Shown piece by piece: positions 18,818-61,546 of a stretch of 64,000 nt of DNA. Source of the stretch: Clostridia bacterium (GTDB lineage: Bacteria; Bacillota; Clostridia; UMGS1883; UMGS1540); NCBI GenBank assembly GCA_045531205.1, contig JAZSDN010000104.1, forward strand, positions 18,100 to 82,099. The letters are read 5' to 3'. Made by a program: the position numbers and the translations under genes. Each line of letters starts with the position of its first letter. Within the stretch, counting starts at the first letter, position 1. Under the pieces are notes generated by a model that saw only the letters and a list, made by a program, of their open reading frames with translations, ran no database searches and was not told the DNA's origin.

Positions 18818-18922
18818 AAGTGTTGACTTATACAAAAAAATATAGTAGAATACTTAATGTAAATTAAATAAAATTATCCGGTTGGACGGCAAATGCCGTT
18901 TTCAAGTAAACAAAGCTTTAGG

Positions 18923-33728: not shown

Positions 33729-34078
33729 GGGGATGTAACGGTTTCGACGGTGGGTTTGAACCACGGGAAGCGGGCAGGGGCGAGAGACCTCTTTAAAAAC
33801 TCTTAAAATTAAATTTAAACGCTAACGACAATTTAGCATTTGCAGCCTAATTAAAGGCTGCCGTCCTACCGCATAGTACTGCGGATGCGGATAGGGTGTC
33901 ACATTAGCAGTGAACGTGACCAAAGTAAGCTTTGCCTTTGGCATGAATAATGAAGCTACCAAAAATCAAAGTTTGTTTATGGGCTTTGGTTTGAGGGAAA
34001 TTTAACCATAAACTGCGCCCGGAGATGCCTGTGCGGATAGTTTGCCGGACAGGAGTTCAACTCTCCTCATCTCCACCA
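33729..34078 (+). ncRNA. ssrA: tmRNA (ssrA) with predicted tag ANDNLAFAA
   Basis: The 5' end GGGGATGTAACGGTTTCGACGG is tRNA-like. The 3' end GGAGTTCAACTCTCCTCATCTCCACCA is a T-arm plus CCA. There is an internal tag ORF gct aac gac aat tta gca ttt gca gcc taa, and a terminator follows immediately. Confidence 0.9.
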
Positions 34079-42786: not shown

Positions 42787-43023
42787 TACATTTAAAATAC
42801 TGCTAAGGTAGCAGAAAATGACAGAGCAAAGGCTTTTAAAAAGCCTTTGCCTGTCCTTTATAATATAGATATCCAGGGAAATGAAATATTTTGGGTTAAA
42901 ATTTTGTCTCCTGGTTTGGCGGAGATATTAAAAAACGAATATTCCGCACATCCTGCTTTAAAAGTCAGAACAATGTGCGTTTTTATAAAGGAAGGTATGA
43001 AAAAGGAAAGGAATGAAAAATTT

Positions 43024-46000: not shown

Positions 46001-46182
46001 ACCTTTCAGCCTTCTCTGATGCTTCTTTGGTAGCAGATTATGCAGCACAAGATATAATGGCAATGGTAAATGCAGGCATAGTAAAGGGTAATGCCGACGG
46101 CACAATTAACCCCCTTGGCAATACAACAAGAGCAGAAGCAGCAGTTATTATGGATAGAATCAGTGCTTGGAAAGCACAGTAA
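43024..46182 (+). CDS. Large cell-surface protein: signal peptide, 2 CBM4_9-like modules, a conserved unassigned ~450-aa glycosidase-like core, and 3 C-terminal SLH domains
   Basis: The SLH repeats are clear (FTDVLPAVTYSKEVAIGQALGILLGSGDGTFRPEEPISRQDF; NADGTINPLGNTTRAEAAVIMDRI). The core is shared with the 46225 and 48942 genes (YKYDRPTYLGKDGVFR, HPDLRHD, NNDEP, RETYIAIRNNDPNHPV, MEQG, GHDPYP). The start is set at MKKRFLAVLL by analogy with the paralog. In-frame alternatives are 42997 and the longest ORF from 42847. Confidence 0.7.
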   Translation: MKKRFLAVLLTLCLLITSLPFAAIAAEGDKDFILNGSFEEVKSDGKTLRDWSVLDYKDKFVEAYDEEAYEGKYSARLNGEGQDKVRIYFSKLRDMKPGGKYTLSFFVNAKNKKGDLVLDVTVAGKNYAQSYKPKANRWTEITLNFTVPKTGTAGSMYIGAYNGLDVLVDKVTVMGPVRGENDNPEVDENTVTPPASTVEVIADTEKNSTPPKSVPKSVPDSNAIASGRNLVQNADFENDTNNIGPWNWEPYFAGWDQNNQMVVYDKTFGHESERSIKLTNGNPAQRPWVRQVIEVSAETEYQASMWYYTNFTAEESDADKRGKSNTVIMVEYYTGEPGSDTYLGVDDLFALSGTGGKWIQTAATFTTPPNTKYIRYYARRYGVGTVWVDDMALYSTTKPNPVGVSTDQIFYYSDQTAAGVATAELDLLAFPELENAKIDFALTLDGKTVAEQKGVQAKGSTATWYFDLSWMTKKQTEYRIEATVNGKTDFERVYKYDRPTYLGKDGVFRKNGQALMPTYAWYYVERQYGYGMIDAQINVAEVGIPRSESMTDAQKIAQITKTLDDLWARGMYGLILTYSNSRGGGHPDLRHDTELICAAIKDHPAVYAYINNDEPFARTGNPHDELRETYIAIRNNDPNHPVMSMEQGAYGEAAKFVDIFGHDPYPGDTRDPLTYVAQRRSDADEATQGLRPVNSLLQVMNWRGYFPTGDDLRSMIYQTFLEGGGSYGFFKFINASDAGDDLDETHLWEPLTEFTHNEREDAFKAFVFDEYPIFSNVKKDNYWAVSYVKGNQVNMVVLNRKKEDQQLSIPLTSCGGTHTITEFTGKAAFGGKGEDVSGSGVLNITLPAGAAVLYEIKPTNVGEIAGVPVMRFRDLDGYDWAFNSILKMDNAGVLDSLAYHYYRPEKNITRGDFAMFLIRALGLTAENATCTFTDVLPAVTYSKEVAIGQALGILLGSGDGTFRPEEPISRQDFMVICARGMRLVSENGLSGGDLSAFSDASLVADYAAQDIMAMVNAGIVKGNADGTINPLGNTTRAEAAVIMDRISAWKAQ

Positions 46183-46224
46183 GCATTATATATCCTATAA
46201 TGAACATAGAAGGGAGTTACATTT

Positions 46225-48852
46225 ATGAAAAGATTTTTAGCACTTTTAATGTCGGTATGCCTTATTATAACAGCACTGCCTATAATGGCATCGGCAGATT
46301 TTGTTGCAGATATTGAAAAGAATACATTGATACCGGACGGAACGCCTGAAAGCGTTCCCTCCGATGACGAAATTATTGGTGTATCAAACCTTTTGCAAAA
46401 CGGCGATTTTGAAAATGATACCAATAATATCGGCCCCTGGAACTGGACCGGCTTTGGCGGTGCATGGGGCCCGAACCAGATGGTTGTATACGAAACAAAT
46501 TTCGGTCACGAAAGCAGCCGAAGCGTAAAGCTTACAAATGGTGACCCGCTTGTAAGACCCTGGGTAATGCAGGCTATTGAAATTGACGCAGAAGCAGAAT
46601 ATCAGTTTGGTATGTGGATTTATACAAACTTCACAGCAGAGCAAAGCGATGGAGATAAAAGAGGTAAAGGAAACACAGCCCTTTTGATTGAATTTTATAG
46701 CGGCGTACCGGGATCAGATACTACAAATGGTTCTATTGACTTAATTGCTCCATCGGGAACAGGAGGTAAGTGGGTACATTTTACTCAAAGATTAGAAATA
46801 CCTGCCGGCACAAAATATGCCCGTGTTTATGCTCGTAGATACGGCGTAGGTACAGTTTGGGTAGATGATATGACTGTATATAACACAGTAAGACCAAACC
46901 CCATAACCGTAACACCTGACCAGACATTCTATTATTCTGACCAGACAACACCCGCTTACGCAGAAGCTGAAGTTAACTTAAAAGCATACCCCGAACTTGA
47001 AGGTACAAAGCTTGATATGGCTTTAACACTTAACGGAAAGGTTATTGAAGAACAAAAGGATATCCAGACCGACGAAAACGGTATTGCAAAGTGGTATTTT
47101 GATGTATCCTGGATGAATCTTAAAAATACTGAATACCGCATTGAAGCAACTGTGGACGAATATACCAATTTTGACTATGTTTATAAATACGACCGTCCTA
47201 CCTACTTAGGAAAAGATGGTGTATTCCGTAAAAATGGCGTAGAGCTTATGCCAAGCTATGCTTGGTGGTATATGGAAAATCACTATAAAGCAGGTGCCAA
47301 GGAAGGCAAAATAACTATTGCCGAGGTCGGCATACCCCGTACAGGCTCCGACAGATCGAAGATAGCATCAATAAAGAAAACTCTTGATACGTTACAGAAA
47401 AAGGGAATGTACGCTCTTATACTGACCTATTCTGAAATGAAAGGTGGCGGACATCCAGACCTTCGTCACGATACCGAGCTTATTTGTGCAGCGATTAAAG
47501 ACCATCCCGCAGTTTTTGCGTATGTAAATAACGACGAACCCTTTGCAAGAAATGCAAACGCAGGGGATGAACTTAGAGAAACATATATTGCAATCCGTAA
47601 CAACGACCCTAACCACCCCGTTATGTCAATGGAACAGGGCTCATATAATAAGGCGGTAAGATATGTAGATATTTTTGGTATTGACCCATATCCTGCTGAC
47701 CTTAGAGATCCTCTTACCTTCGTTGCACAGAAAGTAAATGAGGCATTTAAAATACTGGATGGCAGAAAACCTGTGTATACTCTTTTACAGGCACTCGATT
47801 ACAGAGGATACTGGCCATCAAACGACGAAATGCGTAGTATGATATATCAGTCGTTCCTTTCAGGTGGCGGTGGTGTTGGTTACTTTAGATTTTATCAGGC
47901 GCAAGGTAAGATTGACTTACACCAGACTGACCTTTGGCCCGCAATTTCGGGTTGGGCTCAAAACGAGTTTGAAGATACCTACAATGCATTTGTATTAGAT
48001 AAATATCCCATTTTCAGCGACGTAAAAGAAGATGATTACTGGGCAGTATCCTATGTAAAGGAAAACAAAATACAAATGGTAGTCTTAAACCGTAAAAAAG
48101 AAGACCAGGAAATAGAAATACCTCTTACAAGCTTAAATGGCACAAATCAAATAACCGCATTCACAGGAAAACTCCTTTATGGTGCTGAGGAAGCAACCGT
48201 TTCAGGTAACGAAGTTTTAAAGATTACTCTTCCCGGCAGTGCAGCACTTCTTTACGAAATCGTTCCTAAAAACGCTGCAGAAATCAGCGGAGTAGAAGTA
48301 ATGCGTTTCCGTGATTTAACAAAGTACGGATGGGCTTATGATTCCATTTTAAGAATGGATAAAGCAGGTGTTTTAGACTCAAACGCTTACCATTACTACC
48401 ATCCTGAAAGAAATATTACAAGAGGCGACTTTGCAATGTTCCTCGTTCGTGCATTAGGTCTTAAGGCTGACAATGCAACCTGCACATTCACAGATGTATT
48501 ACCTAACGTTACCTATGCAAAGGAAGTTGCAATAGGTCAGACTTTGGGAATACTCAAAGGCTCAGGTGACGGAACTTTCAGACCCGAAGAACCCATTTCA
48601 AGACAGGACTTTATGGTAATTTGTGCAAGAGGTATGCGTTTAGTTTCCGAAAACGGACTTTCGGGCGGCGACCTTTCGGCATTCTCTGATGCCGCTTTGG
48701 TAGCAGATTATGCAGCAGAGGACATAATGGCAATGGTAAATGCAGGCATAGTAAAGGGTAATGCCGATGGCACAATTAACCCTCTTGGCAACGCAACAAG
48801 AGCCGAAGCCGCAGTTATTATGGACAGAATAACTGCTTGGAAGGCACAATAA
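46225..48852 (+). CDS. Cell-surface paralog: signal peptide, 1 CBM4_9-like module, the same conserved core, and 3 C-terminal SLH domains
   Basis: Collinear with the 43024 gene from its second CBM onward. The C-terminal ~600 nt are about 90% identical to the 43024 gene at the nucleotide level. Confidence 0.75.
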   Translation: MKRFLALLMSVCLIITALPIMASADFVADIEKNTLIPDGTPESVPSDDEIIGVSNLLQNGDFENDTNNIGPWNWTGFGGAWGPNQMVVYETNFGHESSRSVKLTNGDPLVRPWVMQAIEIDAEAEYQFGMWIYTNFTAEQSDGDKRGKGNTALLIEFYSGVPGSDTTNGSIDLIAPSGTGGKWVHFTQRLEIPAGTKYARVYARRYGVGTVWVDDMTVYNTVRPNPITVTPDQTFYYSDQTTPAYAEAEVNLKAYPELEGTKLDMALTLNGKVIEEQKDIQTDENGIAKWYFDVSWMNLKNTEYRIEATVDEYTNFDYVYKYDRPTYLGKDGVFRKNGVELMPSYAWWYMENHYKAGAKEGKITIAEVGIPRTGSDRSKIASIKKTLDTLQKKGMYALILTYSEMKGGGHPDLRHDTELICAAIKDHPAVFAYVNNDEPFARNANAGDELRETYIAIRNNDPNHPVMSMEQGSYNKAVRYVDIFGIDPYPADLRDPLTFVAQKVNEAFKILDGRKPVYTLLQALDYRGYWPSNDEMRSMIYQSFLSGGGGVGYFRFYQAQGKIDLHQTDLWPAISGWAQNEFEDTYNAFVLDKYPIFSDVKEDDYWAVSYVKENKIQMVVLNRKKEDQEIEIPLTSLNGTNQITAFTGKLLYGAEEATVSGNEVLKITLPGSAALLYEIVPKNAAEISGVEVMRFRDLTKYGWAYDSILRMDKAGVLDSNAYHYYHPERNITRGDFAMFLVRALGLKADNATCTFTDVLPNVTYAKEVAIGQTLGILKGSGDGTFRPEEPISRQDFMVICARGMRLVSENGLSGGDLSAFSDAALVADYAAEDIMAMVNAGIVKGNADGTINPLGNATRAEAAVIMDRITAWKAQ

Positions 48853-48941
48853 AATAGAAAAGAACGGAAGTTTTTTCAATAGCGCAAAGGCTATTAACAG
48901 CCTTTGCACTGTACTTTTTGGAAGAAATGAGGGATTTTACA

Positions 48942-51900
48942 ATGAAAAAACGAATATTAGCATGGTTGCTTGTACTGGTGGTCTTATTTACTATGACACC
49001 ACTTGCAACAGCTGTGACAGCAGAAGACGAAATTGAACAAAATGCCGAGCTTCTTACAAACGGAGATTTTGAATCCGTAACAGCGGACGGAAAAACTCTT
49101 AACTACTGGAACCCATGGGTTACAACTGCTGATTATAGCGAATACACCATAGTAACAGATGATGTTTATGAGGGCAATTATGCCGTAAAAATGAAATATG
49201 ATTCTTCAACAGGCAAACTGAGAAATGCAATTACACGAACTGAATCAAATGTAGTGGTTGGAGGCCAAAGCTATACGTTTACAGCCTATGCAAAAGCGTG
49301 TGAAGCTGTAGGCAGTGTTTCGATAGAAATAAAGTTTGGAGGTTACGGCGAAGAAGCTATTGCGTATAACAACAATTCAACAGATTATGTTGTAGGACAA
49401 TATCAAAAGATTGAAAAAACCTTTTCCGTGCCCGCAGAAGTAACCAGCTTTTCGATTTATATTCGTGTTTATGGCGGAGAATTTATTTTTGATAATTTCT
49501 CCATAAAAGGTCCGAAGCGTATTATAGAGATTATTCAGCCCGATGAAGTAATTGCGCAGGACACAACACCGCCCCAAGGCACCGAACAGGAAGTGCAAAG
49601 CGAATTTATACCAAATAACAGTTTTGAAGCCACAAGCACATGGCTTGGGACTACATACCTTAAAAATTGGACTGCATTAAGCAATGCAAACGATTATGGT
49701 GAATACACTATATCGACAGATGCTAAAGACGGAGCAAAAGCTATCAAAATGGCGTTTGACTCTACAAAAGGAAAAATAAGAAACACTATTTATCAAAGAG
49801 TTGACATACCGCTTGTAGCGGGAGAAAGCTACACATTCACAGCCTATGTAAAGGGCTTGACATCGGAAGCTGCTGCTTCTGTTCAAATAGAACAGGGTTC
49901 ATTTTTACAAGTAGTGTCTTATAATAATACACAGGAAAACTATGCACAGGGAGAGTATGTAACGCTTGAACATACCTTTACAGCACCCGAGGGAATAACA
50001 AGCTTTAATGTGTTCATCCGTATTACAAGCGGAGAATTTATTTGGGACAAGGTATCAATTGTTGGTGCAAGGATGATGACTGCGGTTGAAAGCGTACCAA
50101 ACGCTGACTATATATCCGGATTACCCAATATCCTTATAGACTCATCCTTTGAAGAAAAGATAACAGGACGAAATGCCACAGGTGGATGGGGAACTACAAC
50201 ACAGTTTGTTAATAATTTTGGACATAACAGTGCTACCTGTGCGAGAATAGTGAACACAACAGAAAATACAAGAAATTATTTAGCCCAAAGGCTTACACTT
50301 CATGGCGGTTGTGTATATCAGGTAAGCTTGTGGATTTGCATGGAAAAGCCAAGCGACACTAAATATTCAGCAGCCAAAAATGGTTCAATGGCTGTAGACT
50401 ATATAACTTATGGTTTAGACGGTTCTGTTATAAAAGACCAAAGCCAAAGTCTTGGAGTAACTGGAACTGATGGAAAGTGGAAACAGTGTGTATTTCAGAT
50501 AACACCCACTGATGGAACTGCTGCAGCAATGATTATGCCTCGACTAACCGGACGCGGAACTGCATGGGTAGATGATGTTGAGGTAAGCCTTGTTTCAAAC
50601 GAAAATGCGTGGGCAGTTTCGGTTGAAACAGATGAAGTATTCTATTACAGCGACAGAGAAGAAGCAGGCACAGCAACAGTCGCTATTAATGTAGGTGCTC
50701 ATCCTGAACTTGTTGGAGAGGACATCACATTTACTCTGCTTCGAAATGGCGCTACACTTGGCACTAACACAATGAAATGTGAAAGTGGTAAAAATTACTA
50801 TAATAGCAGCTTTGATTTAAGCCTTTTATCAGAAAAAAAGGCAGAGTATATTATGAAAGTCGAGATAGGGGAATATACAGCCGAAACAAAGCTCTATAAA
50901 TATGACAGACCGCTTTATATCGGTAAAGACGGAGTATTCCGCGATAAAAACGGTAAAGTATTCAAGCCCTTCTATGCGTATAATATGCTGGATGAGCATT
51001 TAGACTTCGCTGCAGAGGATGCAAACTTCAATTTACATATGATAGGCATACCTAGTGACAAAGATGGAGAAGAGCTTGTACAGTATATGAGAAATGAGCT
51101 GGATGAGCTTCAGCAAAAAGGTTATATGGCGCTTGTACAAACCTATGGCTTATATGAGGGCTTAAACGTTCCTGGGGGACATCCTTCCCGTCGCGAAAGA
51201 ACAGCAACTGTGGTAGCAGGACTAAAAGACCATCCCGCACTTTTTGGCTATATGAATATGGATGAACCCATGACACAAAGCAGAGATTTGCGTGATGACT
51301 TAAGAGAAACATATATTGCAATCAGAAATAACGACCCATACCATCCAGTATGCACAACAGAACAGGGTAGTTATGATAAGTCAGTAAAATATGTAGATGT
51401 ATTGGGAATTGACCCTTATGTCGGAACCAATGTTCCATATACGTATGTAGGCAACAAAGTAACAGAGGCCGTAGCTGCAACAAAGGGTGAAAAACCTGTT
51501 TATGCAGTTTTGCAGGCGTTTGAATGGCGTAGTTACTGGCCATCCCGTAATGATTTGAGGGATATGATTTATCAGGCCATAATGGCCGGTGCATCAGGAA
51601 TAGGTTTTTACAAATTTGTAGATGCAAAGGGTGAACTTGAACTACATGCAACAGACCTTTGGCCGGTAATATCAGATTTTGGACAAAATGAGTGGAATAC
51701 TGCTTATAAAGCATTTGTAAAAGGAGACTATCCGGAATTTAGCACTAAAAGAGAAACTAATTATTGGATGAACTCTTTTGTAAAAGAAAATAACAAGCTC
51801 ATTATGTATGTAGCAAACCGTACAAACGCTGTGCAGGAAATTACATTTACTCTTGTAAGTGATGACAATACAATGTCGATTGGTGCATACACCGTTGAAA

Positions 51901-53072
51901 GTAGTTCAAGTACACAAGCATTAACTTCGGGTAGCGGCACAATTACCATTTCATTACCCGCAAGCAGTGCTGAATTTTATGTAATAACTCCGCAGAACAG
52001 TTCAGACCTTCCTGACGTTGAGCTTCCTGATGAAGAATTAACCCTGGATTCGGTTATATCCCGAGGAAAATTTGCTTCTATGCTTATTGATACACTGAAC
52101 ATTCCTGCTGGTGACCCAAGCGATAATTTTGCCGATGTTGACGAGGGTAAAAGCTACGCATCACAGATTTCAGCAGGTAAAGCTCTGGGCATCTTGGTAG
52201 CTGACGAGAATGATTTATTTAATCCAAACGGAAAACAGACAATAGATGATGCACTTTTAATGTGCCTTCGCGGATTAAGATATAAGAAAGCTCCTTTGGT
52301 TTCGGCAGAAGATATGGCAGCCTTTACCGAGGATGATTTGTTTGGGCTTTCCCCAGCTCCTGTTTTAGCCGCAAGCATATTAGAAAACAGACAAGCAGCA
52401 CGAGGAGAAAACATTTCTCTTGATTCAAATAATATAACTCTGTATGAAGCAAATAAGCTTTTAGAAAAGGTAGGAGCATTATTGCTTGATGAAAGTACAG
52501 ATTTTTCAAATCTTTCTGCCAATGGTGCACGTCAGGCTACAAGGATTTTAAAGGGTGGTATTTCAAACGTTAATGATGTTTTTGTTAGTACAGAAGGCAC
52601 TATGACAATTGTGTATAATGCAGCAAAAACTCCATACGCATATTCAAAGAGTATTGGCTCTGAAACAGTAAGTATTGCAACAAATACTGCAGAAATAACA
52701 ATTGCAGACGGTATTTTATCCGCTTTAGTTGAACCAAATAAATTCTTTGTTATAGCTAATGCGTCGGCTGTTAGACGAGGCTTCCATTTAGGTCAGATGA
52801 TATATCCATATCCTGTAGAGGGAAGCCGGGCACAGATGGAACCTGATGCATTTCTCGGAATATATGATGTTTCTGGAGAGTTTAAAGAATTGCTTGGAAC
52901 CTTCAAAAACGGAGATATAATGCCACAAACAACAAAAGACTTTAAGTTTTTGAAGTGGGATGAAAATTTGAATCCCAAAAGTGACATTCTTTTAGAACTT
53001 ACAATACTCAGAGCTTCTGAAGATTCTATGTCAAATATTATTCAGGGCATAGGGGATGGGCTTGAAAAATAA
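48942..53072 (+). CDS. Large cell-surface paralog (about 1376 aa): signal peptide, 3 CBM-like modules, the same conserved core, degenerate SLH-like repeats and an extra C-terminal region of unknown function
   Basis: It shares the core blocks (YKYDRPLYIGKDGVFR, HPSRRERT, MNMDEP, RETYIAIRNNDPYHPV, TEQG, GIDPY, FYKF). GAGGGA lies 7 nt upstream of the start at MKKRIL. The ORF-track start at 48918 is a TTG further upstream. Confidence 0.7.
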   Translation: MKKRILAWLLVLVVLFTMTPLATAVTAEDEIEQNAELLTNGDFESVTADGKTLNYWNPWVTTADYSEYTIVTDDVYEGNYAVKMKYDSSTGKLRNAITRTESNVVVGGQSYTFTAYAKACEAVGSVSIEIKFGGYGEEAIAYNNNSTDYVVGQYQKIEKTFSVPAEVTSFSIYIRVYGGEFIFDNFSIKGPKRIIEIIQPDEVIAQDTTPPQGTEQEVQSEFIPNNSFEATSTWLGTTYLKNWTALSNANDYGEYTISTDAKDGAKAIKMAFDSTKGKIRNTIYQRVDIPLVAGESYTFTAYVKGLTSEAAASVQIEQGSFLQVVSYNNTQENYAQGEYVTLEHTFTAPEGITSFNVFIRITSGEFIWDKVSIVGARMMTAVESVPNADYISGLPNILIDSSFEEKITGRNATGGWGTTTQFVNNFGHNSATCARIVNTTENTRNYLAQRLTLHGGCVYQVSLWICMEKPSDTKYSAAKNGSMAVDYITYGLDGSVIKDQSQSLGVTGTDGKWKQCVFQITPTDGTAAAMIMPRLTGRGTAWVDDVEVSLVSNENAWAVSVETDEVFYYSDREEAGTATVAINVGAHPELVGEDITFTLLRNGATLGTNTMKCESGKNYYNSSFDLSLLSEKKAEYIMKVEIGEYTAETKLYKYDRPLYIGKDGVFRDKNGKVFKPFYAYNMLDEHLDFAAEDANFNLHMIGIPSDKDGEELVQYMRNELDELQQKGYMALVQTYGLYEGLNVPGGHPSRRERTATVVAGLKDHPALFGYMNMDEPMTQSRDLRDDLRETYIAIRNNDPYHPVCTTEQGSYDKSVKYVDVLGIDPYVGTNVPYTYVGNKVTEAVAATKGEKPVYAVLQAFEWRSYWPSRNDLRDMIYQAIMAGASGIGFYKFVDAKGELELHATDLWPVISDFGQNEWNTAYKAFVKGDYPEFSTKRETNYWMNSFVKENNKLIMYVANRTNAVQEITFTLVSDDNTMSIGAYTVESSSSTQALTSGSGTITISLPASSAEFYVITPQNSSDLPDVELPDEELTLDSVISRGKFASMLIDTLNIPAGDPSDNFADVDEGKSYASQISAGKALGILVADENDLFNPNGKQTIDDALLMCLRGLRYKKAPLVSAEDMAAFTEDDLFGLSPAPVLAASILENRQAARGENISLDSNNITLYEANKLLEKVGALLLDESTDFSNLSANGARQATRILKGGISNVNDVFVSTEGTMTIVYNAAKTPYAYSKSIGSETVSIATNTAEITIADGILSALVEPNKFFVIANASAVRRGFHLGQMIYPYPVEGSRAQMEPDAFLGIYDVSGEFKELLGTFKNGDIMPQTTKDFKFLKWDENLNPKSDILLELTILRASEDSMSNIIQGIGDGLEK

Positions 53073-53136
53073 TCTGCCCAAACTTCAGAATGGAAAGAAA
53101 AGGTATAGTAAATAAAGTTAAAAGAGGTAGAAAGCA

Positions 53137-54207
53137 ATGAAAAAAATTCTTAGAGTGTTATTAGCAATGATAATGCTGTTTTCAATGATGTGCACTCTTT
53201 TTGTAAATGCTGACACCACTACCATTGTTGTAACACAAGCCACAATGGGAACAGATGGCAATGTTACTGTACGTGGTAAAGTTACCTCGGGGACACCCGG
53301 TGCAGTAACAATTCTGGTAACGGTGCAGAATGCAGCAAACGGCAAGGAAGCTTTGAGTACAATGGCTGATGGTTCAACAGTAGCCTATGCTGACCAAACA
53401 AGTCCTAATCAAAGTGGTGAATTTGAATTCAAATTCAAACCAAAAGCAGATTTGTCAGGTTCACACACAACAATATATGTATGTGCAACAGGTGTTACGA
53501 TAGAAAACTTGTTTGCCGAAAACCTTACAGGCAATGAGGTTAAAGTAAATTATGGCACTACAACAAAACCATATGAAAGCGTAGACGGCGTTGTAACAAT
53601 ATCCTTACGTCCCGCAGAAAAAGACAGTGTAGCTATCGCAACCGAAACAGGTTACTTTAAGCAGTGGGATATTATGGGTATAAAATCAACTACAGAAGGG
53701 ACACAAAAAGAGGTTACACTTAATAATAACATCAAAGCCGGAATACTTACAGCTAAACCTGAATTTTTTGATGATCCCGCACATACATCTGTTTCAGCGG
53801 CAAAAGCACAGAGTGTTATATTGGCAAACGGAAAAAAAGCAATCCGTTTTCTGGCACTTGTAGGAGAAGATTATGAAAACTATGCAAATGCAGGTTTTGT
53901 ACTTTCAACATTAGGAACAAATCCCACAGTTGAAGCAGGCTACAAAGCACATAAATTCAATAATTTGTATAAAAAGATTATTGCCGAAGGTGCTGAATTA
54001 GATGTTACAGATGAAGCAATTAAAAATACTTTTGAGACCACATTTACACCCGCAGGCATCCTCTATGCAAACCTTGTAATCGAAGAAGGAAATGAAAATA
54101 CAGTGTATTATGCAACACCTTATCTTGAAGATGCAAGACACAACAGAATTTATGGAGCAACAAAGAAAATAAGCTTAAATGAGCTTACACAGTTAGATGC
54201 TCAATAA
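53137..54207 (+). CDS. Hypothetical secreted protein (356 aa), paralog of the 39304 gene
   Basis: A signal peptide and collinear similarity to the 39304 product. It is followed by a terminator hairpin (gtttgcttttaagcaaac + T-run) homologous to the one after the 39304 gene. Confidence 0.7.
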   Translation: MKKILRVLLAMIMLFSMMCTLFVNADTTTIVVTQATMGTDGNVTVRGKVTSGTPGAVTILVTVQNAANGKEALSTMADGSTVAYADQTSPNQSGEFEFKFKPKADLSGSHTTIYVCATGVTIENLFAENLTGNEVKVNYGTTTKPYESVDGVVTISLRPAEKDSVAIATETGYFKQWDIMGIKSTTEGTQKEVTLNNNIKAGILTAKPEFFDDPAHTSVSAAKAQSVILANGKKAIRFLALVGEDYENYANAGFVLSTLGTNPTVEAGYKAHKFNNLYKKIIAEGAELDVTDEAIKNTFETTFTPAGILYANLVIEEGNENTVYYATPYLEDARHNRIYGATKKISLNELTQLDAQ

Positions 54208-54615
54208 AGCTTGAATGAGGATGTAAATAAAAAATATCTAAAATCTTTGATAGAAAAAGTATTATTTATGAAGAATAATTTACGATAAGTTATTTTTCTC
54301 AAAAAATCCAAAAAACAAAAAATAAGTTTGCTTTTAAGCAAACGGATTTTTTGTTTGGCGAAAATCACCCTAAGTCTGCGTGGTTTAAAAAAGGTTAACT
54401 GATGAACAGATAACGAAGTGTAATTTATTCCAAAAAGCAAATTGTTATTGTAATATCGCAGTATAGTACACACAATCTGCCGCTGCAAAAAAACAATCCA
54501 TTTATGGATAGCTTTTTTAAAAACATCTTTAGCATTAGTTGTTAAATCAAAGTTAAGTTTTAAACGCAAAACCATGCAAAACAAAAATAATATCACTTAA
54601 ACGCGATATAATTAC

Positions 54616-54654
54616 TATAAAAAATCAGGCGTAGTGTTTTAACACTACGCCTGA
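54616..54654 (-). terminator. Rho-independent terminator of the minus-strand SLH gene
   Basis: Perfect 12-bp stem tcaggcgtagtg-ttttaa-cactacgcctga. The plus-strand A-run becomes a U-tract on the minus strand. Confidence 0.8.
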
Positions 54655-54675
54655 AATCAAGGTTTCAATTTTTGT

Positions 54676-57600
54676 TTATCTGTATGCTATACACATCATA
54701 AGTGTATACTTGCTGTAATAAGAAACAATCTTATCGCCTACAACAAGCTCTTCGGGAGTAATACGGGTTAATTCTTCTGTTTCAGTATCCCATACTGCAT
54801 AGTAGCCGGTAGCTGAAGGAAGAGCACGAGTTGTTTTGTAGCCTGAAGGTTCACCGGATATGGTATAACTCTTTCCGTAAGTACCTACACCGTCACCCTT
54901 AGCAAGGTTTGTTTCTACAAGAACAGAACCTCCATCAAGTACTTTAACTACATAACCATCTGTAATTGTAAGACCACCTGTATAGAGTTCATCAGGGCTG
55001 GTTATCTGCGGACCATACAAGTTAGTTACGCCCATTTCTACATCGCCGGGGTATTCAGCACGATACATAACAGAACCGGTTTTTAATGTGCCGTCGGTAT
55101 TAAGTTCGTACTGAATGATATCGCCAGGCATAAGGTCTGCAACATCTATAAATATGTCTTTTGCTCTGGAACGTTCGCCTTTAATTTCAGGATCAGTAAC
55201 AGCGGGCTGATACTTTGTTACTTTATCTGATTTGAGCATATACCAGTCGGGGTCGCCGGGGAGGGTTACGATCTGGCCATTTTCTAAAGCTGTACGGCTC
55301 CATAAACGAGCGTTAGCACCTCTGTAGAAAATTCGACTGTTATCTTCATTTATAATAGCGTCAATTTCTTCGCCGGCGTTACTATGGAGTTTTAAAACAT
55401 CTACTATTTCGCCGGTTTCTTCAGAAACAAGTTTCGAGAAGCCAAGAACAAGTGCTGCTCTTGCTTCACCATCGGGTAATTCTAATCCGCTGTCTGAAGT
55501 TGTGGGTAACAAGTCTCTTCTGTTAACAACTGCACCGCAGATGTAATCCATATCCATATCATAGAATACAAGACAAGCTTTTACAGCTACTCTACGGAAT
55601 ACGTCGATACCTCTGAATTCATTCTTAGCATCTAAAACAGCGTAATCCTTTTCTATACTTGCATCGTAAGGAATTATAAAGTAAGGAACACCTGATTCTA
55701 TACGCAAACGGCTGAAAAGAGTGTGGCTTATATATTCAACAGCACGATCACCTAATGCAGCATTTTTACCTTCTTCACTACCTTCAAGTGTACCATTATA
55801 CATTCTGCTGGGGCCATTTCCTTCTGCTGCCTGGAGATTTGAATTACCTCTCATGAAGTAGTCCAAACTGAATTCGCCGCCTGCTTTATCTTCAGCAGGA
55901 GTATCAAGTCTTGATTCATTTACAGCTGTTTCAATTGAAATGAGGTAGCCTTCTTCGTCAACTTCATAAGAAATCAACTGAGGAACTACTACACCATTGT
56001 TGTCTACCAGGGTGGGAGCAGTTTTTGAATCGTACATTCTTTCAATTATTTTGCCGTTCTTCAAAAGGTCTTTGCCTAAAATACGTGTGCCGTTGAATGT
56101 AACATGTTCAGCTGCTGTAAGGAGTAACCATTCCTCGTCTGCTGTAAAGATGTAAATCTGTGCTTTGGGGCTGATACCGGGAGTATAAGCCGCATTCTTA
56201 AGCCAAGCATAATTACGCATTTCTGCTGACAATTCGCCAATAGCTGCAATTGTGCCAAAGTAGTCAAGACGGAAAGCAGCAGGTTTGCCTACGGGAATTT
56301 CAGCAAGATTCATGCTTACATTGTATGTTTCGTCATCAATTACAACAGTACTGTCTGTTTTATCCATTTCTGTAACAGTACCTTCAAGAACTTCGTAGCT
56401 GCTGTAAATTTTGCGAATAGTTGCATTTGATTCGCTATCCTGTGCTACGCTGAGGATATCGCCGGAAAGCAAATCTTCAAGAGCCAGGTCATTACCGTCA
56501 GCATCTTTTAAGATGTTTTTAACATCAGTGCTTTCTAAATCAATTATCATAGAAGAACCGTTTTCAAAGATTACTTTGTTATCTTTTGCGATAACACTCT
56601 TGATTACATAGTTCTTATATTCTTCAACAATTACTGTGTTACATTTTGTTCCGTTGTCAAAAACTAAACGAACTGAACCGCTTTTGGGGGCTAAAAGCGC
56701 TTTATCCATAGCAATAACTCGTCCGTTGTATACGAGTGTAGCACCTGTGATTTCAGCCTTTTTTTCGTCCTTTTCAACTTCATAGAAAAGAGTGTTTGCT
56801 GTTGTTTTACCAGTGTTAACGTCTTTTCCAACGAGGTCTACAACTTTTGAATTATTTGAAGGAATAACAGCAACCAAAACGTTCATTCCAACGGCTTCAT
56901 CTTCCTTATAGTATACATCTGAAGGAATTGCAAAAAGGCTTTCTACATCTACTTTGCCTGCCTTCATTACTTGGTTTTTGCCATTTACAGGAACAACAAC
57001 TTCGTCACTTGATAAGTTTGAAGTTTCTTTTATAGCTGCTGCTGTAGCGGTCTGAACGATTTTAGATTCAATGCGGGTTGCATTTTGGTAACGGGTAAGT
57101 AATGTTACATCTTCATCGAATGTGTATTCGAGGTTATCGTTACCATAGCTTGCACGTTCTGCAAGAGGAGCTTCAAGTGCATTGTAAATCAAAATTGCCA
57201 TATTGCCACGGGTCATTGTAGCATCTGTTGCAACGCCCTTTAACAAATCAAGCTGTGTTGCTTTTACAAGGTATCCTGAAGGATATCCGCCAAGTGCATC
57301 TGCCTGAACACCGTAACCTAAAGCTGCAACTACCATTTTTACTGCCTGCTCGTAAGTAACAGTTGCGTCAGGAGCAAATGTCTGTGCATCAATTCCGTTG
57401 ATGATACCCATCTGATATGCAGCACTTACATAAGAGTAAGCCCAGTGAGTAGAGGGAACATCAGCGAATATGTCCTTGCCAGTGATGCCGTCTGCTAAAT
57501 TGATGGCACGTAAAATTATTGTTGCCATTTCTGCTCTTGTCAAAGAACCATCGGGGTCATAATTGCCCTCGGGTTTACCTTCAACAATTCCAAAAGCAGC

Positions 57601-57726
57601 TAATACTTCTACTGCTGTTTCATAGTTTGTGCCTTCTGTATCCGGGAAGGATGCAGCAAATACGCTTAATTGAGGTAATGTCAAAAGCATAACACAAACC
57701 AAAAACATTGCGAGTCGTCTTTTCAT
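54676..57726 (-). CDS. S-layer-associated protein: signal peptide, 3 N-terminal SLH domains and an ~830-aa region of unknown function
   Basis: The SLH repeats are clear (FPDTEGTNYETAVEVLAAFGIVEG...LTRAEMATIILRAI; FADVPSTHWAYSYVSAAYQMGIING). The remainder has no motif I can assign. Confidence 0.7.
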   Translation of the reverse strand: MKRRLAMFLVCVMLLTLPQLSVFAASFPDTEGTNYETAVEVLAAFGIVEGKPEGNYDPDGSLTRAEMATIILRAINLADGITGKDIFADVPSTHWAYSYVSAAYQMGIINGIDAQTFAPDATVTYEQAVKMVVAALGYGVQADALGGYPSGYLVKATQLDLLKGVATDATMTRGNMAILIYNALEAPLAERASYGNDNLEYTFDEDVTLLTRYQNATRIESKIVQTATAAAIKETSNLSSDEVVVPVNGKNQVMKAGKVDVESLFAIPSDVYYKEDEAVGMNVLVAVIPSNNSKVVDLVGKDVNTGKTTANTLFYEVEKDEKKAEITGATLVYNGRVIAMDKALLAPKSGSVRLVFDNGTKCNTVIVEEYKNYVIKSVIAKDNKVIFENGSSMIIDLESTDVKNILKDADGNDLALEDLLSGDILSVAQDSESNATIRKIYSSYEVLEGTVTEMDKTDSTVVIDDETYNVSMNLAEIPVGKPAAFRLDYFGTIAAIGELSAEMRNYAWLKNAAYTPGISPKAQIYIFTADEEWLLLTAAEHVTFNGTRILGKDLLKNGKIIERMYDSKTAPTLVDNNGVVVPQLISYEVDEEGYLISIETAVNESRLDTPAEDKAGGEFSLDYFMRGNSNLQAAEGNGPSRMYNGTLEGSEEGKNAALGDRAVEYISHTLFSRLRIESGVPYFIIPYDASIEKDYAVLDAKNEFRGIDVFRRVAVKACLVFYDMDMDYICGAVVNRRDLLPTTSDSGLELPDGEARAALVLGFSKLVSEETGEIVDVLKLHSNAGEEIDAIINEDNSRIFYRGANARLWSRTALENGQIVTLPGDPDWYMLKSDKVTKYQPAVTDPEIKGERSRAKDIFIDVADLMPGDIIQYELNTDGTLKTGSVMYRAEYPGDVEMGVTNLYGPQITSPDELYTGGLTITDGYVVKVLDGGSVLVETNLAKGDGVGTYGKSYTISGEPSGYKTTRALPSATGYYAVWDTETEELTRITPEELVVGDKIVSYYSKYTLMMCIAYR

Positions 57727-57910: not shown

Positions 57911-58801
57911 TTACTTTGTTTTTTGCCTTGCAGGAAGCTGTACTAACACAATGGCTGTAAACATAATTATGCACCCTAAAATTTCCTGCAGATTCATTGT
58001 TTCGTGAAGGAATAATGTACCTGCCAAAACGGCAAAAACCGATTCAAGACTCATAAGAAGAGAAGCGGTTGCGGGTTCTGTATATTTTTGAGCTATTATC
58101 TGCAAGGTATAGCCTACACCGCCCGAAAAAATACCGCAGTAAAGAATTGGCATTGCTGCAGAAATTATTTTTTCCATACTTGGAGCTTCAAATATAAATG
58201 CTGCAATAAAACAAATAATGGCAGTTGTAACAAACTGTATTGCAGATATTTCTATGGGGTTTCCTCTTTGAACAAAATAATCGCAACAGAGAATATGTCC
58301 GCTGAACATTATAGCACAAAGCAAAACAAGAAAATCCCCTTTTGTAAGAACAAAGCCTTCTTTTATGCAAAGAAAATACATTCCTGCAAGACCAAGCAAA
58401 ACAGCAAGCCACACTCTTAAAACATTTTTCTTTCTGAAAAAAACAAGGTTGATTATTGGAACAAAAAGTATGTACATAGCCGTAATAAACCCTGCTTTGC
58501 CTGCACTTGTGTAAACAATACCCATCTGCTGCAAAAGACTTGCCACAGCTAAAAATATACCGCAGCATATACCGCCAAGCAAGGTTTTGTTGGAAGTCTG
58601 GGCAGCTTCTTTTGGTTTATTTGTTTTTCTTAAAATAAGGGCAATACTGCCTACAAAAACTGCCGATAAAGCCATTCTTGAAGCGGCAAAGGTTACAGGC
58701 TCTATTTTGTCCATACCAACCCGCTGTCCAACAAAAGCCATACCCCAGATTAAGGCTGCAAGTATAAGAAGTAAGTTACCCATCATTTTTTTGTTTTTCA
58801 T
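57911..58801 (-). CDS. DMT-superfamily (EamA-like) membrane transporter
   Basis: 296 aa with about 10 transmembrane segments and two EamA-like halves. Confidence 0.7.
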   Translation of the reverse strand: MKNKKMMGNLLLILAALIWGMAFVGQRVGMDKIEPVTFAASRMALSAVFVGSIALILRKTNKPKEAAQTSNKTLLGGICCGIFLAVASLLQQMGIVYTSAGKAGFITAMYILFVPIINLVFFRKKNVLRVWLAVLLGLAGMYFLCIKEGFVLTKGDFLVLLCAIMFSGHILCCDYFVQRGNPIEISAIQFVTTAIICFIAAFIFEAPSMEKIISAAMPILYCGIFSGGVGYTLQIIAQKYTEPATASLLMSLESVFAVLAGTLFLHETMNLQEILGCIIMFTAIVLVQLPARQKTK

Positions 58802-58865
58802 AAGTTTTAAACACCTTTTTCGTTTATTTTTTACGGCACGGATTTATATCCGTGCCGTTTAAAAT

Positions 58866-61166
58866 TTATTTATTTAATTTTTCAAGGTCTTTGTTTCTGA
58901 TTTCAACACGTCTTACTTTACCGCTGATGGTCTTGGGAAGTTCATCAACAAAGTCTACAATTCTTGGGTACTTGTAAGGTGCTGTGTGAGTTTTAACATA
59001 TTCCTGAACTTCTTTTTTAAGCTCGTCTGTGCCTACAGTTCCTTTTGTAAGAACTATTGTAGCCTTTACAATTTGACCACGTACTTCGTCAGGAACAGGA
59101 GTAATAGCACATTCAAGTACGTAAGGAAGCTCCATGATAACGCTTTCGATTTCAAAGGGACCTATGCGGTAACCCGATGACTTGATAACGTCATCAATAC
59201 GTCCAACATACCAAAGATAACCATCTTCGTCCATGGTTGCCTGGTCGCCTGTATGGTAGTAACCGTCATACCACACGTCATTAGTCTTTTCTTCGTCAAG
59301 GTAATATCCTATAAAGAGACCGCAGGGAACGCCATCCTTTGTGCGGATACAGATTTCGCCTGTATCACCTGTTTTACATTCGTTGCCGTCGGGGTCTAAA
59401 ACCACAACATCGTATAAAGGACTTGGTCTGCCCATAGAACCGATTTTTGGTGTTGAACCCACAAAGTTAGCAATTGAAAGGGTTGTTTCGGTCTGTCCAA
59501 AGCCTTCCATAATAGTAAGACCTGTTGCTTTTTTAAACTGATTAAATACTTCAGGGTTTAAAGCCTCGCCTGCAGTTGTTGCATATTCAATGGAAGAAAG
59601 GTCATATTTTGACAAATCTTCTTTGATAAAGAAGCGGTACATTGTAGGCGGAGCACAGAAGGTTGTGATATTATACTTCTTAAAGAGGGGAAGTATATCT
59701 TCTGAATGGAATCTGTCAAAGTCATAAGTAAATACGCCTGCTTCGCAAAGCCACTGACCGTAAAGCTTACCCCATAAAGCTTTGCCCCAACCTGTGTCTG
59801 AGATTGTAAAGTGAAGTCCGTCAGGATTTACATTGTGCCAATGCTTTGCAGTAGGATAGTGACCGAGAGCATATTTATATGAATGAGTTGCAATTCTTGG
59901 ATAGCCTGTTGTGCCTGATGTAAAGAGCATAAGCATCGGGTCGTTACCGCAAGGCGAGCTTTCGGTACGGTAATAATGTGTACTGAAACGTTCCATTTCA
60001 ACGTTAAAATCATTCCAGCCCTCTTTTTTACCGCCAACTAAAATCTTAATCATATCAGGGAAAGCTTTTGCAGCCTTTTCAGCTTCGTCAGAAACTTCTC
60101 CGTCTGCAGTACAAACAATAGCCTTTACTTTAGCTGCTTTATATCTGTATTCAAAATCGTGAGCTACAAGCTGGTTTGTTGCAGGGATTGCAATAGCACC
60201 GATTTTATGAAGTGCAAGCATACAAAACCAGAACTGATAGTGACGCTTTAAAACAAGCATAACTGTATCGCCCTTTTTAATACCGAGTGATTCAAAGTAA
60301 TTAGCAGTTTTTGCAGAATACTTTTTCATATCAGAGAAAGTAAATCTGCGGTCAGATTTATCGTTTGCAACCCACATCATAGCAAGCTTGTCGGGATTTT
60401 TCTCGGCAATTGCATCAACGCAGTCAAATGCAAAGTTGAATTTATCGTCGTTTTTAAACGAAATGCCTGAAAATACACCGTTTTCGTCGTATGATGATTC
60501 AATAAAGTTATCTGCAACAGTTTTTACTGTGCTTTCTTTTACAGCGGTTTTTGCAGCAATAAAGGGAGCTTCGGGATATTCTTCGCTTACCTGTCCGTCT
60601 TGCGGATTTAAAACAACTGCGTGGAATTCACATCCGCCTTCGCTTACTGCAATCATACCGTGGGGGATAATACTGTTATAGAAAATAGAATCGCCTTCGT
60701 GAAGAACATCTATATGATTACCTACCTGAACTTTAAGTGAACCCTTAACAATAACATCAAATTCCTGACCGTTATGTGAGTTAAGCTTAATGGGCGCGTT
60801 CTGCTCTTCTGCAAGATAAGGGAACTTAACCAAAAAAGGTTCAGCAAGCTTTTCTTTAAATTTGGGTGCTAAGTTATTGTAAACAACACCGTGTTTTTTA
60901 ATAATTTTAAGTCCTTCGCCTTTTCTTGTAATAGCAAATGATGTAAGGGTAGAGCTTGTTCCTTCCAGAATATCAACAACTTCAACTCCGCAAGCCTTTG
61001 CACACTTATAAATAAATGTAAAGCTGAAGTCTGTTTCACCCTGTTCTAAAACCATGTAATCTTCTACAGATACACCGCAAAGTTTTGCAAGTTCTTCGGG
61101 TGTAAAGCCTTTTGCCTCGCGCAGGTCTTTGATTCTGCCTGCGACTTCTTTTAAACTGTAATCCAT
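58866..61166 (-). CDS. Fusion protein: XRE-family HTH + cupin domain + AMP-forming medium-chain acyl-CoA synthetase (ANL superfamily)
   Basis: An N-terminal HTH (LKEVAGRIKDLREAKGFTPEELAKLCGVSVEDY). A cupin (DVIVKGSLKVQVGNHIDVLHEGDSIFYNSIIPHGM). An ANL core (LFTSGTTGYPRIA, EGFGQTETT, YHTGDQA, SSGYRIGPFEIESV, PKTISGKVRR) closely resembles ACSM-type ligases. The start at MDYSL has GGAGA 7 nt upstream. In-frame upstream ATGs at 61184 and 61196 lack an RBS. Confidence 0.75.
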   Translation of the reverse strand: MDYSLKEVAGRIKDLREAKGFTPEELAKLCGVSVEDYMVLEQGETDFSFTFIYKCAKACGVEVVDILEGTSSTLTSFAITRKGEGLKIIKKHGVVYNNLAPKFKEKLAEPFLVKFPYLAEEQNAPIKLNSHNGQEFDVIVKGSLKVQVGNHIDVLHEGDSIFYNSIIPHGMIAVSEGGCEFHAVVLNPQDGQVSEEYPEAPFIAAKTAVKESTVKTVADNFIESSYDENGVFSGISFKNDDKFNFAFDCVDAIAEKNPDKLAMMWVANDKSDRRFTFSDMKKYSAKTANYFESLGIKKGDTVMLVLKRHYQFWFCMLALHKIGAIAIPATNQLVAHDFEYRYKAAKVKAIVCTADGEVSDEAEKAAKAFPDMIKILVGGKKEGWNDFNVEMERFSTHYYRTESSPCGNDPMLMLFTSGTTGYPRIATHSYKYALGHYPTAKHWHNVNPDGLHFTISDTGWGKALWGKLYGQWLCEAGVFTYDFDRFHSEDILPLFKKYNITTFCAPPTMYRFFIKEDLSKYDLSSIEYATTAGEALNPEVFNQFKKATGLTIMEGFGQTETTLSIANFVGSTPKIGSMGRPSPLYDVVVLDPDGNECKTGDTGEICIRTKDGVPCGLFIGYYLDEEKTNDVWYDGYYHTGDQATMDEDGYLWYVGRIDDVIKSSGYRIGPFEIESVIMELPYVLECAITPVPDEVRGQIVKATIVLTKGTVGTDELKKEVQEYVKTHTAPYKYPRIVDFVDELPKTISGKVRRVEIRNKDLEKLNK

Positions 61167-61196
61167 TTTTTTGTCTCCTTTCATTTCCGTTGCCAT

Positions 61197-61510
61197 TTAA
61201 GGCTTTACGGCTTTGAATAAAACAAAAAAACTCGTCTCAAAGTTTTTCTTTGAGACGAGTTATAATAACCCGCGGTACCACTCAAATTACGAAAATATAA
61301 ATATTTCCGTCACTCTCCGAGCTCTAACAAGCCCTTTGCCTTTACGCAGCATTACGGAAGGAGTCTACTAGGCATTGCCGTTCGGTCCTCCAACTCAGAA
61401 GTGATAAGTCATTGGAAAGCTCCGCCATTGCCTCGCACCACCCGGCAACTCTCTCAAGGTTTTGCAATCCGACCGTCTTCGTCATAGTTGTTTTTTGTGA
61501 TATTCAAATT
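61197..61510 (-). promoter_or_regulatory. T-box riboswitch-like leader upstream of the HTH-cupin-acyl-CoA synthetase gene
   Basis: The minus strand reads AATTTGAGTGGTACCGCGGG at 61288-61269, matching the T-box consensus AAnnnGGGTGGnACCGCGGG. It is immediately followed by a terminator hairpin at 61261-61230 and U-tract at 61229-61221. An upstream AGAGAG element and a CCGTAA F-box-like element are present, and the leader is about 310 nt. Confidence 0.65.
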
Positions 61511-61517
61511 TGGATAT

Positions 61518-61546
61518 ATTATATTCAAAAAAAAATAAAATGTCAA
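61518..61546 (-). promoter_or_regulatory. Consensus sigma-A promoter on the minus strand (TTGACA-N17-TATAAT) driving the T-box leader
   Basis: The reverse complement of 61541-61546 is TTGACA and that of 61518-61523 is TATAAT, with an exact 17-nt spacer. Confidence 0.7.

Follow-up and report, generated by a model that had tools for sequence, protein, structure and literature searches.

An isoleucine-type T-box leader upstream of a helix-turn-helix/cupin/acyl-CoA synthetase fusion gene in a Clostridia genome and its probable role in branched-chain acid salvage

Introduction

Described T-box leaders, such as those of Bacillus subtilis tyrS and glyQS and the isoleucine-specific leaders of ileS and ilv genes, have in common a K-turn, a specifier codon followed by a purine, an AG bulge and a distal loop and, as members of the Rfam family RF00230, also a Stem II S-turn, Stem IIA/B, Stem III, a 14-nt T-box sequence with a UGGN bulge, and a terminator and an antiterminator that exclude each other. 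Here, we describe a leader with these same features in a 64,000-nt stretch of a Clostridia bacterium genome (assembly GCA_045531205.1, contig JAZSDN010000104.1, positions 18,100 to 82,099; hereafter the window), where it precedes a gene for a fusion of an XRE-type helix-turn-helix (HTH) domain, a cupin and an acyl-CoA synthetase. It differs from the known T-boxes in that the regulated gene encodes an acyl-CoA synthetase and in that, within the clade of the window, the leader is flanked by a pair of conserved, complementary 8-nt segments; unlike canonical T-boxes, it also lacks the 5′ AGUA strand of the specifier-loop S-turn. Surveys of T-box targets list aminoacyl-tRNA synthetases, biosynthetic genes, and transporters (Wels 2008, PMC2494555; Sun 2013, PMC3766115), and CoA ligases and oxidoreductases are not mentioned as targets in these two surveys. 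The literature searched in full text gave no link of T-boxes to acyl-CoA ligases, to 2-oxoacid:ferredoxin oxidoreductase (VOR) or to branched-chain acid salvage, with the reservation that Vitreschak 2008 may mention one.

On the enzyme side, the closest described relatives are the medium-chain acyl-CoA synthetase MacsMa of Methanosarcina acetivorans (PDB 3ETC), whose preferred substrate is 2-methylbutyrate, reportedly carried through to the CoA thioester (PMC10455477), and the methylbutyryl-CoA synthetase MbcS of Staphylococcus aureus, selective for 2-methylbutyrate and isobutyrate and with a shown role in branched-chain fatty-acid synthesis from these acids when supplied exogenously (PMC10026030). 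MacsMa is archaeal, MbcS feeds fatty-acid synthesis, and both are without the N-terminal HTH-cupin module of the window protein. We know of no T-box control of MbcS. Since the 1960s, fibre-degrading bacteria of the rumen and hindgut have been known to need branched-chain volatile fatty acids, from which they build isoleucine, valine, leucine, and phenylalanine. The rumen precursors are 2-methylbutyrate for isoleucine, isobutyrate for valine, isovalerate for leucine, and phenylacetate for phenylalanine (PMC7356843).

Results and Discussion

T-box leader and specifier codon

Positions are given within the window, and the promoter, leader, and gene of the unit all lie on its minus strand (Table 1). 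The unit opens with a sigma-70 consensus promoter, TTGACA-N17-TATAAT (61546..61518), matching at 12 of 12 positions, and a −10-like TATAAT is found at the equivalent alignment position in most related loci. Relatives of the fusion protein are encoded, at about 90% identity, in at least 579 stretches of species-representative genomes; the best 80 of the 579 were fetched, and the leader was present in all 78 of them that include upstream sequence. An alignment of 74 leader sequences (A1) was used for covariation.

Using the E-value mode of Rfam, the leader matched RF00230 over the full length of the model (positions 1-219) with 89.8 bits and an E-value of 2.7e-20 (3.2e-18 at the scale of the whole window). 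This is 3.2 bits short of the gathering threshold of 93 bits, which is why the T-box was missed by a scan of the window at default gathering thresholds, in which a tmRNA and a Na+ riboswitch were the only hits. The shortfall is mostly due to a 4-nt deletion that removes AGUA from the specifier loop on its 5′ side, and orthologous leaders scored between 86.5 and 96.0 bits, some of them over the cut-off. While the covariance-model score is to the letter under the threshold, an alternative antiterminator structure is predicted: the terminator (61261-61229 plus the U-run) folds at −20.5 kcal/mol (z −6.2) and the competing antiterminator at −10.6 kcal/mol, and the two are mutually exclusive, both using the strand CUCGUCUCA. 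A weaker antiterminator that needs stabilization by tRNA is the arrangement expected of a T-box. On A1, the T-box structure left 94.9% of cells paired, compared to at most 48% with slid partners, and 29 pairs were changed on both sides against a mean of 17.6 in shuffled alignments, none of the 500 shuffles reaching the observed number. The antiterminator pairs were all invariant or nearly so.

The promoter, the T-box architecture, and the competing terminator and antiterminator had all been proposed in an earlier note made from the sequence alone, and these proposals held, with changes to some of the motifs. The K-turn, the specifier codon followed by a purine, the AG bulge, and the distal loop of Stem I were all seen in the model alignment, as was the conserved T-box sequence (AAUUUGAGUGGUACCGCGGG) with its UGGN bulge inside the antiterminator. 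The AGAGAG motif singled out before is indeed the AG bulge; the CCGTAA that had been taken for an F-box-like element is instead a strand of Stem IIA/B, and the F-box equivalent is GCGTAA.

The specifier codon is AUC (Ile). In the RF00230 alignment, AUC-A lies directly above a GAAG/CUUC helix stacked on the K-turn, and B. subtilis glyQS shows the equivalent geometry (GAA-GGC-A-CUUC). ATC was invariant in 78 of the 78 related loci having upstream sequence, with variable bases on its 5′ side (TT, CC, or CT) and usually an A on its 3′ side, and the helix below alternated between GAAG/CUUC and GAGG/CCUC, the covarying pair being AU in 50 leaders and GC in 24. Considering the E-value, the full-length match, the covariation, and the above-threshold orthologues, which together outweigh the sub-threshold score, we conclude that the element is almost certainly a real isoleucine-specific T-box.

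Other registers were considered and rejected. Reading the specifier as NAU would give UAU or CAU, variable between leaders, and reading it as UCN would place the 3′ neighbour inside the stem. An aspartate specifier, AGUA-GAC (61369-61363), which the earlier note had offered as a candidate, aligns to the Stem II S-turn and was dropped in favour of the invariant AUC.

Ligase gene and predicted substrate

The gene most likely starts at ATG 61166 rather than at the listed ATG 61196, because a ribosome-binding site, AAGGAG, is found 8 nt before the former and homologues are 766 to 768 amino acids (aa) long. The leader is therefore about 345 nt long, and not about 310 nt as first estimated. All four Pfam domains of the encoded protein (HTH_3, Cupin_2, AMP-binding, and AMP-binding_C) scored above their cut-offs, AMP-binding (201.8 bits) and AMP-binding_C (76.5 bits) well so, in agreement with the XRE-HTH/cupin/CoA-ligase composition read earlier. 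Its description as an unusual fusion, in contrast, did not survive: the fusion is not rare, being encoded in the at least 579 species genomes mentioned above and found, with the same architecture, in thousands of metagenome proteins. A protein search gave at least 8000 matches, of which the best 120 were 88 to 93% identical and had an identical Pfam architecture. An exact look-up of the window protein itself gave no recorded match, and informative names were absent among the members of its cluster.

Throughout its ligase part, the window protein is 55% identical to MacsMa (525 aa, 673 bits). The best NCBIfam model was MbcS (NF047394) with 451.6 bits, and MbcS was the best curated family for isoleucine-linked and valine-linked ligases alike; more distant matches were ACSM2A (342 bits) and acetyl-CoA synthetases. 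Based on the identity to MacsMa and the isoleucine specifier, the preferred substrate is most likely 2-methylbutyrate, as far as can be predicted from homology. It is very improbable that the enzyme instead acts on isoleucine, on a 2-oxo or 2-hydroxy acid or, in keeping with its ACSM-like label, on a medium-chain fatty acid, in which case the link of the T-box to isoleucine would be indirect. Such a substrate would fit with the missed NCBIfam equivalog cut-off, and the H/E/H triad of the cupin could indicate a second catalytic activity on an oxo-acid. However, the 55% identity to a 2-methylbutyrate-preferring enzyme stands against a much weaker match to ACSM2A and acetyl-CoA synthetases, and for all the cases examined, covering Ile, Val, Leu, and Phe, the specifier agreed with the biosynthetic context, as described below.

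T-box-controlled ligases and operons in related genomes

The N-terminal 240 aa were searched against a representative library, which gave distant full-length fusions, and the genomic contexts of the relatives were examined. In the loci L083, L084, and L086, a T-box with the specifier AUC (Ile) and an HTH-cupin-ligase gene are followed by a T-box with the specifier GUA (Val) and another HTH-cupin-ligase gene, then by a CbiA-like gene, the genes for the ferredoxin delta, VorB, beta, and gamma subunits of VOR, and a branched-chain aminotransferase gene. The VorB and aminotransferase assignments scored 540 bits (cut-off 399) and 485 bits (cut-off 307), respectively. A glutamate dehydrogenase gene directly follows the aminotransferase in the Val-T-box operon of L084, where a further Leu (CUC) T-box was found, incomplete at the end of the locus and without a downstream gene there. 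L085 has the same run up to the gamma subunit, after which the aminotransferase is replaced by a Leu (CUC) T-box unit with a LeuA-like gene and then a TIM-barrel-ligase gene. Two tandem fusions in L081 are under Ile (AUC) and Val (GUC) T-boxes, and a lone fusion under a Val T-box was found in L087, from a human gut sample.

In the leucine-linked paralogue, which is 819 to 851 aa long, a xylose-isomerase-like TIM barrel (AP_endonuc_2) replaces the HTH-cupin module ahead of the AMP-binding ligase. Its gene usually comes after a LeuA-like gene, as in L085, under a Leu (CUC) T-box, which in L057 lies directly ahead of the TIM-barrel-ligase gene, and it adjoins the isoleucine unit in 21 of the 80 loci. 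Furthermore, several genomes of the window type carry PaaK-type phenylacetate-CoA ligase genes behind T-boxes. The specifier was read as UUC (Phe) for L016 and L026, and an ACT-domain protein is encoded directly after the ligase in L026, which points to phenylalanine being made from phenylacetate under T-box control. In each of the cases examined, for isoleucine, valine, leucine, and phenylalanine, the specifier thus named the amino acid derivable from the expected acid of the ligase family.

Two further observations were made in the valine operons. The CbiA-like gene, more precisely a CbiA/ParA-like gene, separates the Val-T-box ligase gene from that of the VOR delta subunit in L083, L084, L085, and L086 alike and encodes a conserved P-loop protein of about 220 aa; an NCBIfam match for this protein was absent, and it may help VOR as a maturation or partner factor. 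Just after the aminotransferase gene of L086, there was a near-threshold match to Gut-1 RNA (RF01706; 47.6 bits, cut-off 50).

Proposed function

From these data, we consider it probable that a transcription-attenuating T-box responding to tRNA-Ile (AUC) controls a branched short-chain acyl-CoA synthetase on a route from 2-methylbutyrate to isoleucine. As long as tRNA-Ile is well charged, the 14-bp terminator would form and transcription would stop ahead of the gene. When uncharged tRNA-Ile accumulates, its anticodon would pair with AUC in Stem I and its free NCCA end with UGGU of the T-box bulge, by which the antiterminator would be stabilized and the gene transcribed. The enzyme would then convert exogenous 2-methylbutyrate, ATP, and CoA to 2-methylbutyryl-CoA, which VOR would carboxylate reductively to 3-methyl-2-oxopentanoate, and a branched-chain aminotransferase would turn this into isoleucine. 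We infer the direction of flux from the operons: with an ATP-spending ligase, VOR, and an aminotransferase together under induction by uncharged tRNA, only the direction from acid to amino acid would be sensible. Such a pathway, in which branched-chain volatile fatty acids serve to make branched-chain amino acids, is classical in the rumen. The target had earlier been regarded as atypical for a T-box, but the gene is best read as one of amino-acid biosynthesis, by salvage, and the T-box would therefore be doing its normal job. The RNA is an ordinary T-box in its mechanism and the enzyme an ordinary ANL ligase; what seems new is the T-box target class and the regulon.

Several points weigh against this proposal. 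It does not account for the HTH-cupin module, which is strongly conserved. MbcS is the closest family, yet the window protein is not an MbcS ortholog or equivalog, its 451.6 bits being far under the cut-off of 850. VOR, aminotransferase, PaaK, TIM-barrel-ligase, or other partner genes were not found in the 64-kb window, and the pathway context comes from other genomes, the ligases of which are 54 to 64% identical to that of the window. Moreover, the Ile-linked and Val-linked fusions of L083 (L083a and L083b) are 71% identical to each other, while they share 64% and 61% identity, respectively, with the window protein. Similarity fails to sort the isoleucine and valine paralogues cleanly and therefore cannot by itself reveal the substrate, and this pattern implies repeated duplication or switching of the specifier. 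Finally, the canonical 5′ AGUA strand of the S-turn is missing from the specifier loop in the model alignment.

The match to MbcS also raises the alternative that an MbcS-like ligase supplies lipid primers, with its product 2-methylbutyryl-CoA being used by FabH to start anteiso branched-chain fatty acids, and that the Ile T-box induces it because the isoleucine-derived primer fails when isoleucine is short. We regard this as unlikely. The best NCBIfam model, whose namesake acts in branched-chain fatty-acid synthesis, and the solitary position of the gene in the window, with VOR and aminotransferase genes not found nearby, would both fit. The Val-T-box paralogues, however, lie in operons that also contain VOR and a branched-chain aminotransferase and, at one locus, glutamate dehydrogenase. 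Such a grouping fits amino-acid synthesis rather than lipid priming, and lipid supply would give no reason for a Phe T-box ahead of PaaK. The two uses are compatible, as they start from the same acyl-CoA, and may coexist.

If isoleucine salvage is the function, the finding attaches genes to a physiology that has been known in the rumen for 60 years, for which the activating enzymes are currently annotated merely as 'AMP-binding protein' or 'helix-turn-helix domain-containing protein'. The specifier would act as a built-in substrate label, with AUC for 2-methylbutyrate, GUA or GUC for isobutyrate, CUC for isovalerate, and UUC for phenylacetate, and the valine operons tie the ligases to VOR and the branched-chain aminotransferase. 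This would provide testable annotations for thousands of proteins from livestock and human gut metagenomes, and it would widen the repertoire of T-box targets to acid-activating salvage enzymes. The units could also serve as markers to predict dependence on branched-chain volatile fatty acids, a matter of relevance to ruminant nutrition, since these acids are given to the animals as feed additives.

HTH-cupin module and bracketing segments

Among 58 orthologues, identity was 88% for the HTH domain, 90% for the cupin, 92 to 93% for the ligase, and 70% for the linker. The cupin residues H131, E135, and H169 were invariant across the Ile- and Val-linked paralogues. In the HTH domain, the recognition-helix positions were among the variable residues, while DFSFTFIYKCAKAC (helices 4/5) was invariant. 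Weak sequence matches in the PDB were to the HTH-cupin regulator 1Y9Q (E 2e-4) and to the epoxidase HppE (E 2.5e-3), and stand-alone HTH-cupin homologues of about 185 aa were 32 to 40% identical to the module. The stand-alone XRE-HTH/cupin proteins (1Y9Q, PuuR-type) have the same order, HTH_3 and then Cupin_2, and differ in that the module of the window protein is fused to a 530-aa enzyme. HppE shares both the domain order and the H-x3-E...H triad with the window protein, and is an enzyme that is not known to bind DNA. An AlphaFold2 model of the full-length protein was poor (mean pLDDT 68.8, N-terminal module 50-80) and was kept out of fold searches. The module may bind DNA, sense a ligand or metal, or mediate protein contacts.

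The two complementary segments that bracket the leader are of relevance here. The 5′ segment, AAATTTGAATATCAC, starts a few bases past the −10 box, at about +1, in 71 of the 74 leaders, and GTTTTATTCAAAT stands after the terminator U-run; the minimum-free-energy fold pairs UUUGAAUA with UAUUCAAA. The only variants forming standard pairs were A-to-G changes opposite U (25 cells), and in L030, L054, and L073 both arms were missing together. Both of these features favour a long-range RNA helix, formable only in read-through transcripts, although the segments could also be two DNA sites for the HTH domain. No pair of the 8-bp core was changed on both sides in the 74-leader alignment, and the helix was unrecognizable in the more distant L081 and L083 leaders.

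DNA sites would be in line with a bifunctional enzyme-repressor on the model of BirA, the biotin protein ligase and bio operon repressor, in which the XRE HTH domain would bind the promoter or leader DNA of its own gene, with the cupin or the bound acyl-adenylate as the signal, adding a protein loop to the T-box. Autoregulation had been raised as a possibility in the earlier note. BirA is likewise an adenylate-forming enzyme with an N-terminal HTH domain, but its fold and HTH family are unrelated to those of the window protein, so that the analogy is functional only. Both module domains exceed their Pfam cut-offs, the module is homologous to stand-alone HTH-cupin proteins and the 1Y9Q regulator, and it is almost as conserved as the ligase (88 to 90% compared to 92 to 93%). 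In addition, the near-invariant AAATTTGAATA just past the −10 box is in a classical operator position and has an inverted copy after the terminator. Nevertheless, we find this model improbable. No conserved palindrome was seen upstream of the −10 box in the leader alignment, the conserved 5′ segment starts at about the transcription start, and the A-to-G changes opposite U in the partner segment keep the RNA pairing where they would alter a DNA site. The recognition-helix positions vary while helices 4/5 do not, the same domain pair presumably functions in HppE without DNA binding, and the leucine paralogue has a TIM barrel at the position of the module.

A wider reading, which we hold to be doubtful, joins two layers of control: the T-box would read tRNA charging, and the fused metal-binding cupin and HTH domain would add an input at the protein level. 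The amino acid or 2-oxoacid might exert allosteric feedback or, by analogy with BirA, DNA or RNA might be bound at the leader-bracketing pair AAATTTGAATA/TATTCAAATT. In either case, the protein would be a regulated ANL enzyme of a kind not described before and, together with the valine, leucine, and phenylalanine units, would define a T-box regulon, likewise undescribed, whose specifier codons mark the acid substrate of each ligase.

Table 1. Positions of the features of the T-box-ligase unit, of T-box-associated genes in related loci, and of other features of the window
Feature	Sequence	Position	Strand	Basis or remark
−35 hexamer TTGACA	Window	61541..61546	−	Part of 12/12 promoter match, spacer 17 nt
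−10 hexamer TATAAT	Window	61518..61523	−	12/12 promoter match
Bracket 5′ arm UUUGAAUA, transcript start	Window	61501..61508	−	Nearly invariant in 71/74 leaders
T-box leader (Stem I, Stem II, IIA/B, Stem III, antiterminator)	Window	61248..61494	−	RF00230 match and covariation
AG bulge AGAGAG	Window	61454-61449	−	Model alignment
AG bulge and distal loop (GGGUGGUGCGA) of Stem I, tRNA-elbow platform	Window	61433..61454	−	Aligns to consensus AGAGA ... GgUUGGUGaaA
Specifier codon AUC (Ile), then A, then CUUC strand of stem above K-turn	Window	61403..61405	−	Covariance-model register
Stem IIA/B 5′ strand CCGTAA	Window	61357-61352	−	RF00230 alignment
F-box equivalent GCGTAA	Window	61347-61342	−	RF00230 alignment
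Antiterminator UGAG / 7-nt bulge UGGUACC / GCGGG ... CUCGU CUCA	Window	61251..61284	−	−10.6 kcal/mol
T-box sequence GAGTGGTACCGCGGG	Window	61283-61269	−	Motif match
Intrinsic terminator: 14-bp stem, 5-nt loop, U-run	Window	61222..61261	−	5′ strand common with antiterminator
Bracket 3′ arm UAUUCAAA, just after terminator U-run	Window	61212..61219	−	Complementary to 5′ arm
Ribosome-binding site AAGGAG	Window	61175..61180	−	8 nt ahead of ATG 61166
Coding sequence, 766 aa, HTH_3/Cupin_2/AMP-binding/AMP-binding_C fusion	Window	58866..61166	−	Pfam, homologue lengths
XRE-type HTH_3, aa 12-64	Window	60975..61133	−	Pfam 32.5 bits, cut-off 23
Cupin_2, aa 127-184, invariant H131/E135/H169	Window	60615..60788	−	Pfam above cut-off
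ANL ligase: AMP-binding aa 252-622 and AMP-binding_C aa 672-750	Window	58917..60413	−	Pfam, similarity to PDB 3ETC
Hairpin 3′ of stop codon, without U-run	Window	58834..58857	−	Sequence
EamA/DMT transporter gene	Window	57911-58801	−	64 nt downstream of ligase
TIM-barrel-ligase	L057	3111-5645		
TIM-barrel-ligase	L001	1137-3596		
TIM-barrel-ligase	L081	1-1150	−	
TIM-barrel-ligase	L085	13455-14334		
T-box and PaaK-type ligase	L026	6515-8628		
T-box and PaaK-type ligase	L016	9572-10298		
T-box and PaaK-type ligase	L031	9517-9765		
CbiA/ParA-like gene	L083	8325-8987		
CbiA/ParA-like gene	L084	8305-8970		
CbiA/ParA-like gene	L085	8337-8996		
CbiA/ParA-like gene	L086	8299-8964		
Glutamate dehydrogenase gene	L084	12702-14054		Directly after aminotransferase
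Leu (CUC) T-box, incomplete	L084	14161-14289		
Gut-1 RNA (RF01706)	L086	12702-12772	+	Near-threshold match
SLH and CBM_4_9 surface protein cluster	Window	40810-57726		
Rhamnosidase gene	Window	34488-36665		
tmRNA gene	Window	33729-34078	+	162.7 bits
secA	Window	19214-21937		
Na+ riboswitch (DUF1646 motif, RF03071)	Window	18880-18932	+	45.0 bits, cut-off 40.5

Genomic setting

The best 80 of the 579 related stretches are metagenome-assembled genomes of Clostridia (Acutalibacteraceae, Oscillospiraceae, 'Ructibacterium', and others) from the gut of goat, yak, cattle, sheep, deer, and buffalo. The window neighbours of the unit (EamA, an Orn/Lys/Arg-type decarboxylase, a radical SAM protein, and an SLH protein) recurred in 0 of 87 related loci; with its flanking genes unconserved, the promoter-T-box-gene unit therefore travels alone. 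Since the hairpin behind the ligase gene is without a U-run, read-through into the EamA gene is possible, and this gene, itself conserved in none of the related loci, may be co-transcribed under the Ile T-box. The EamA protein could be an acid or amino-acid carrier.

Elsewhere in the window, there is a cluster of very large surface proteins (658 to 1384 aa) with SLH and CBM_4_9 domains, and a rhamnosidase gene, which are consistent with a Gram-positive gut organism degrading plant polysaccharides or fibre. No tRNA genes were found in the 64-kb window. The tmRNA gene encodes the tag peptide ANDNLAFAA. The Na+ riboswitch lies about 280 nt upstream of secA, an unusual target for this class, which is followed by a prfB-like gene for RF-2.

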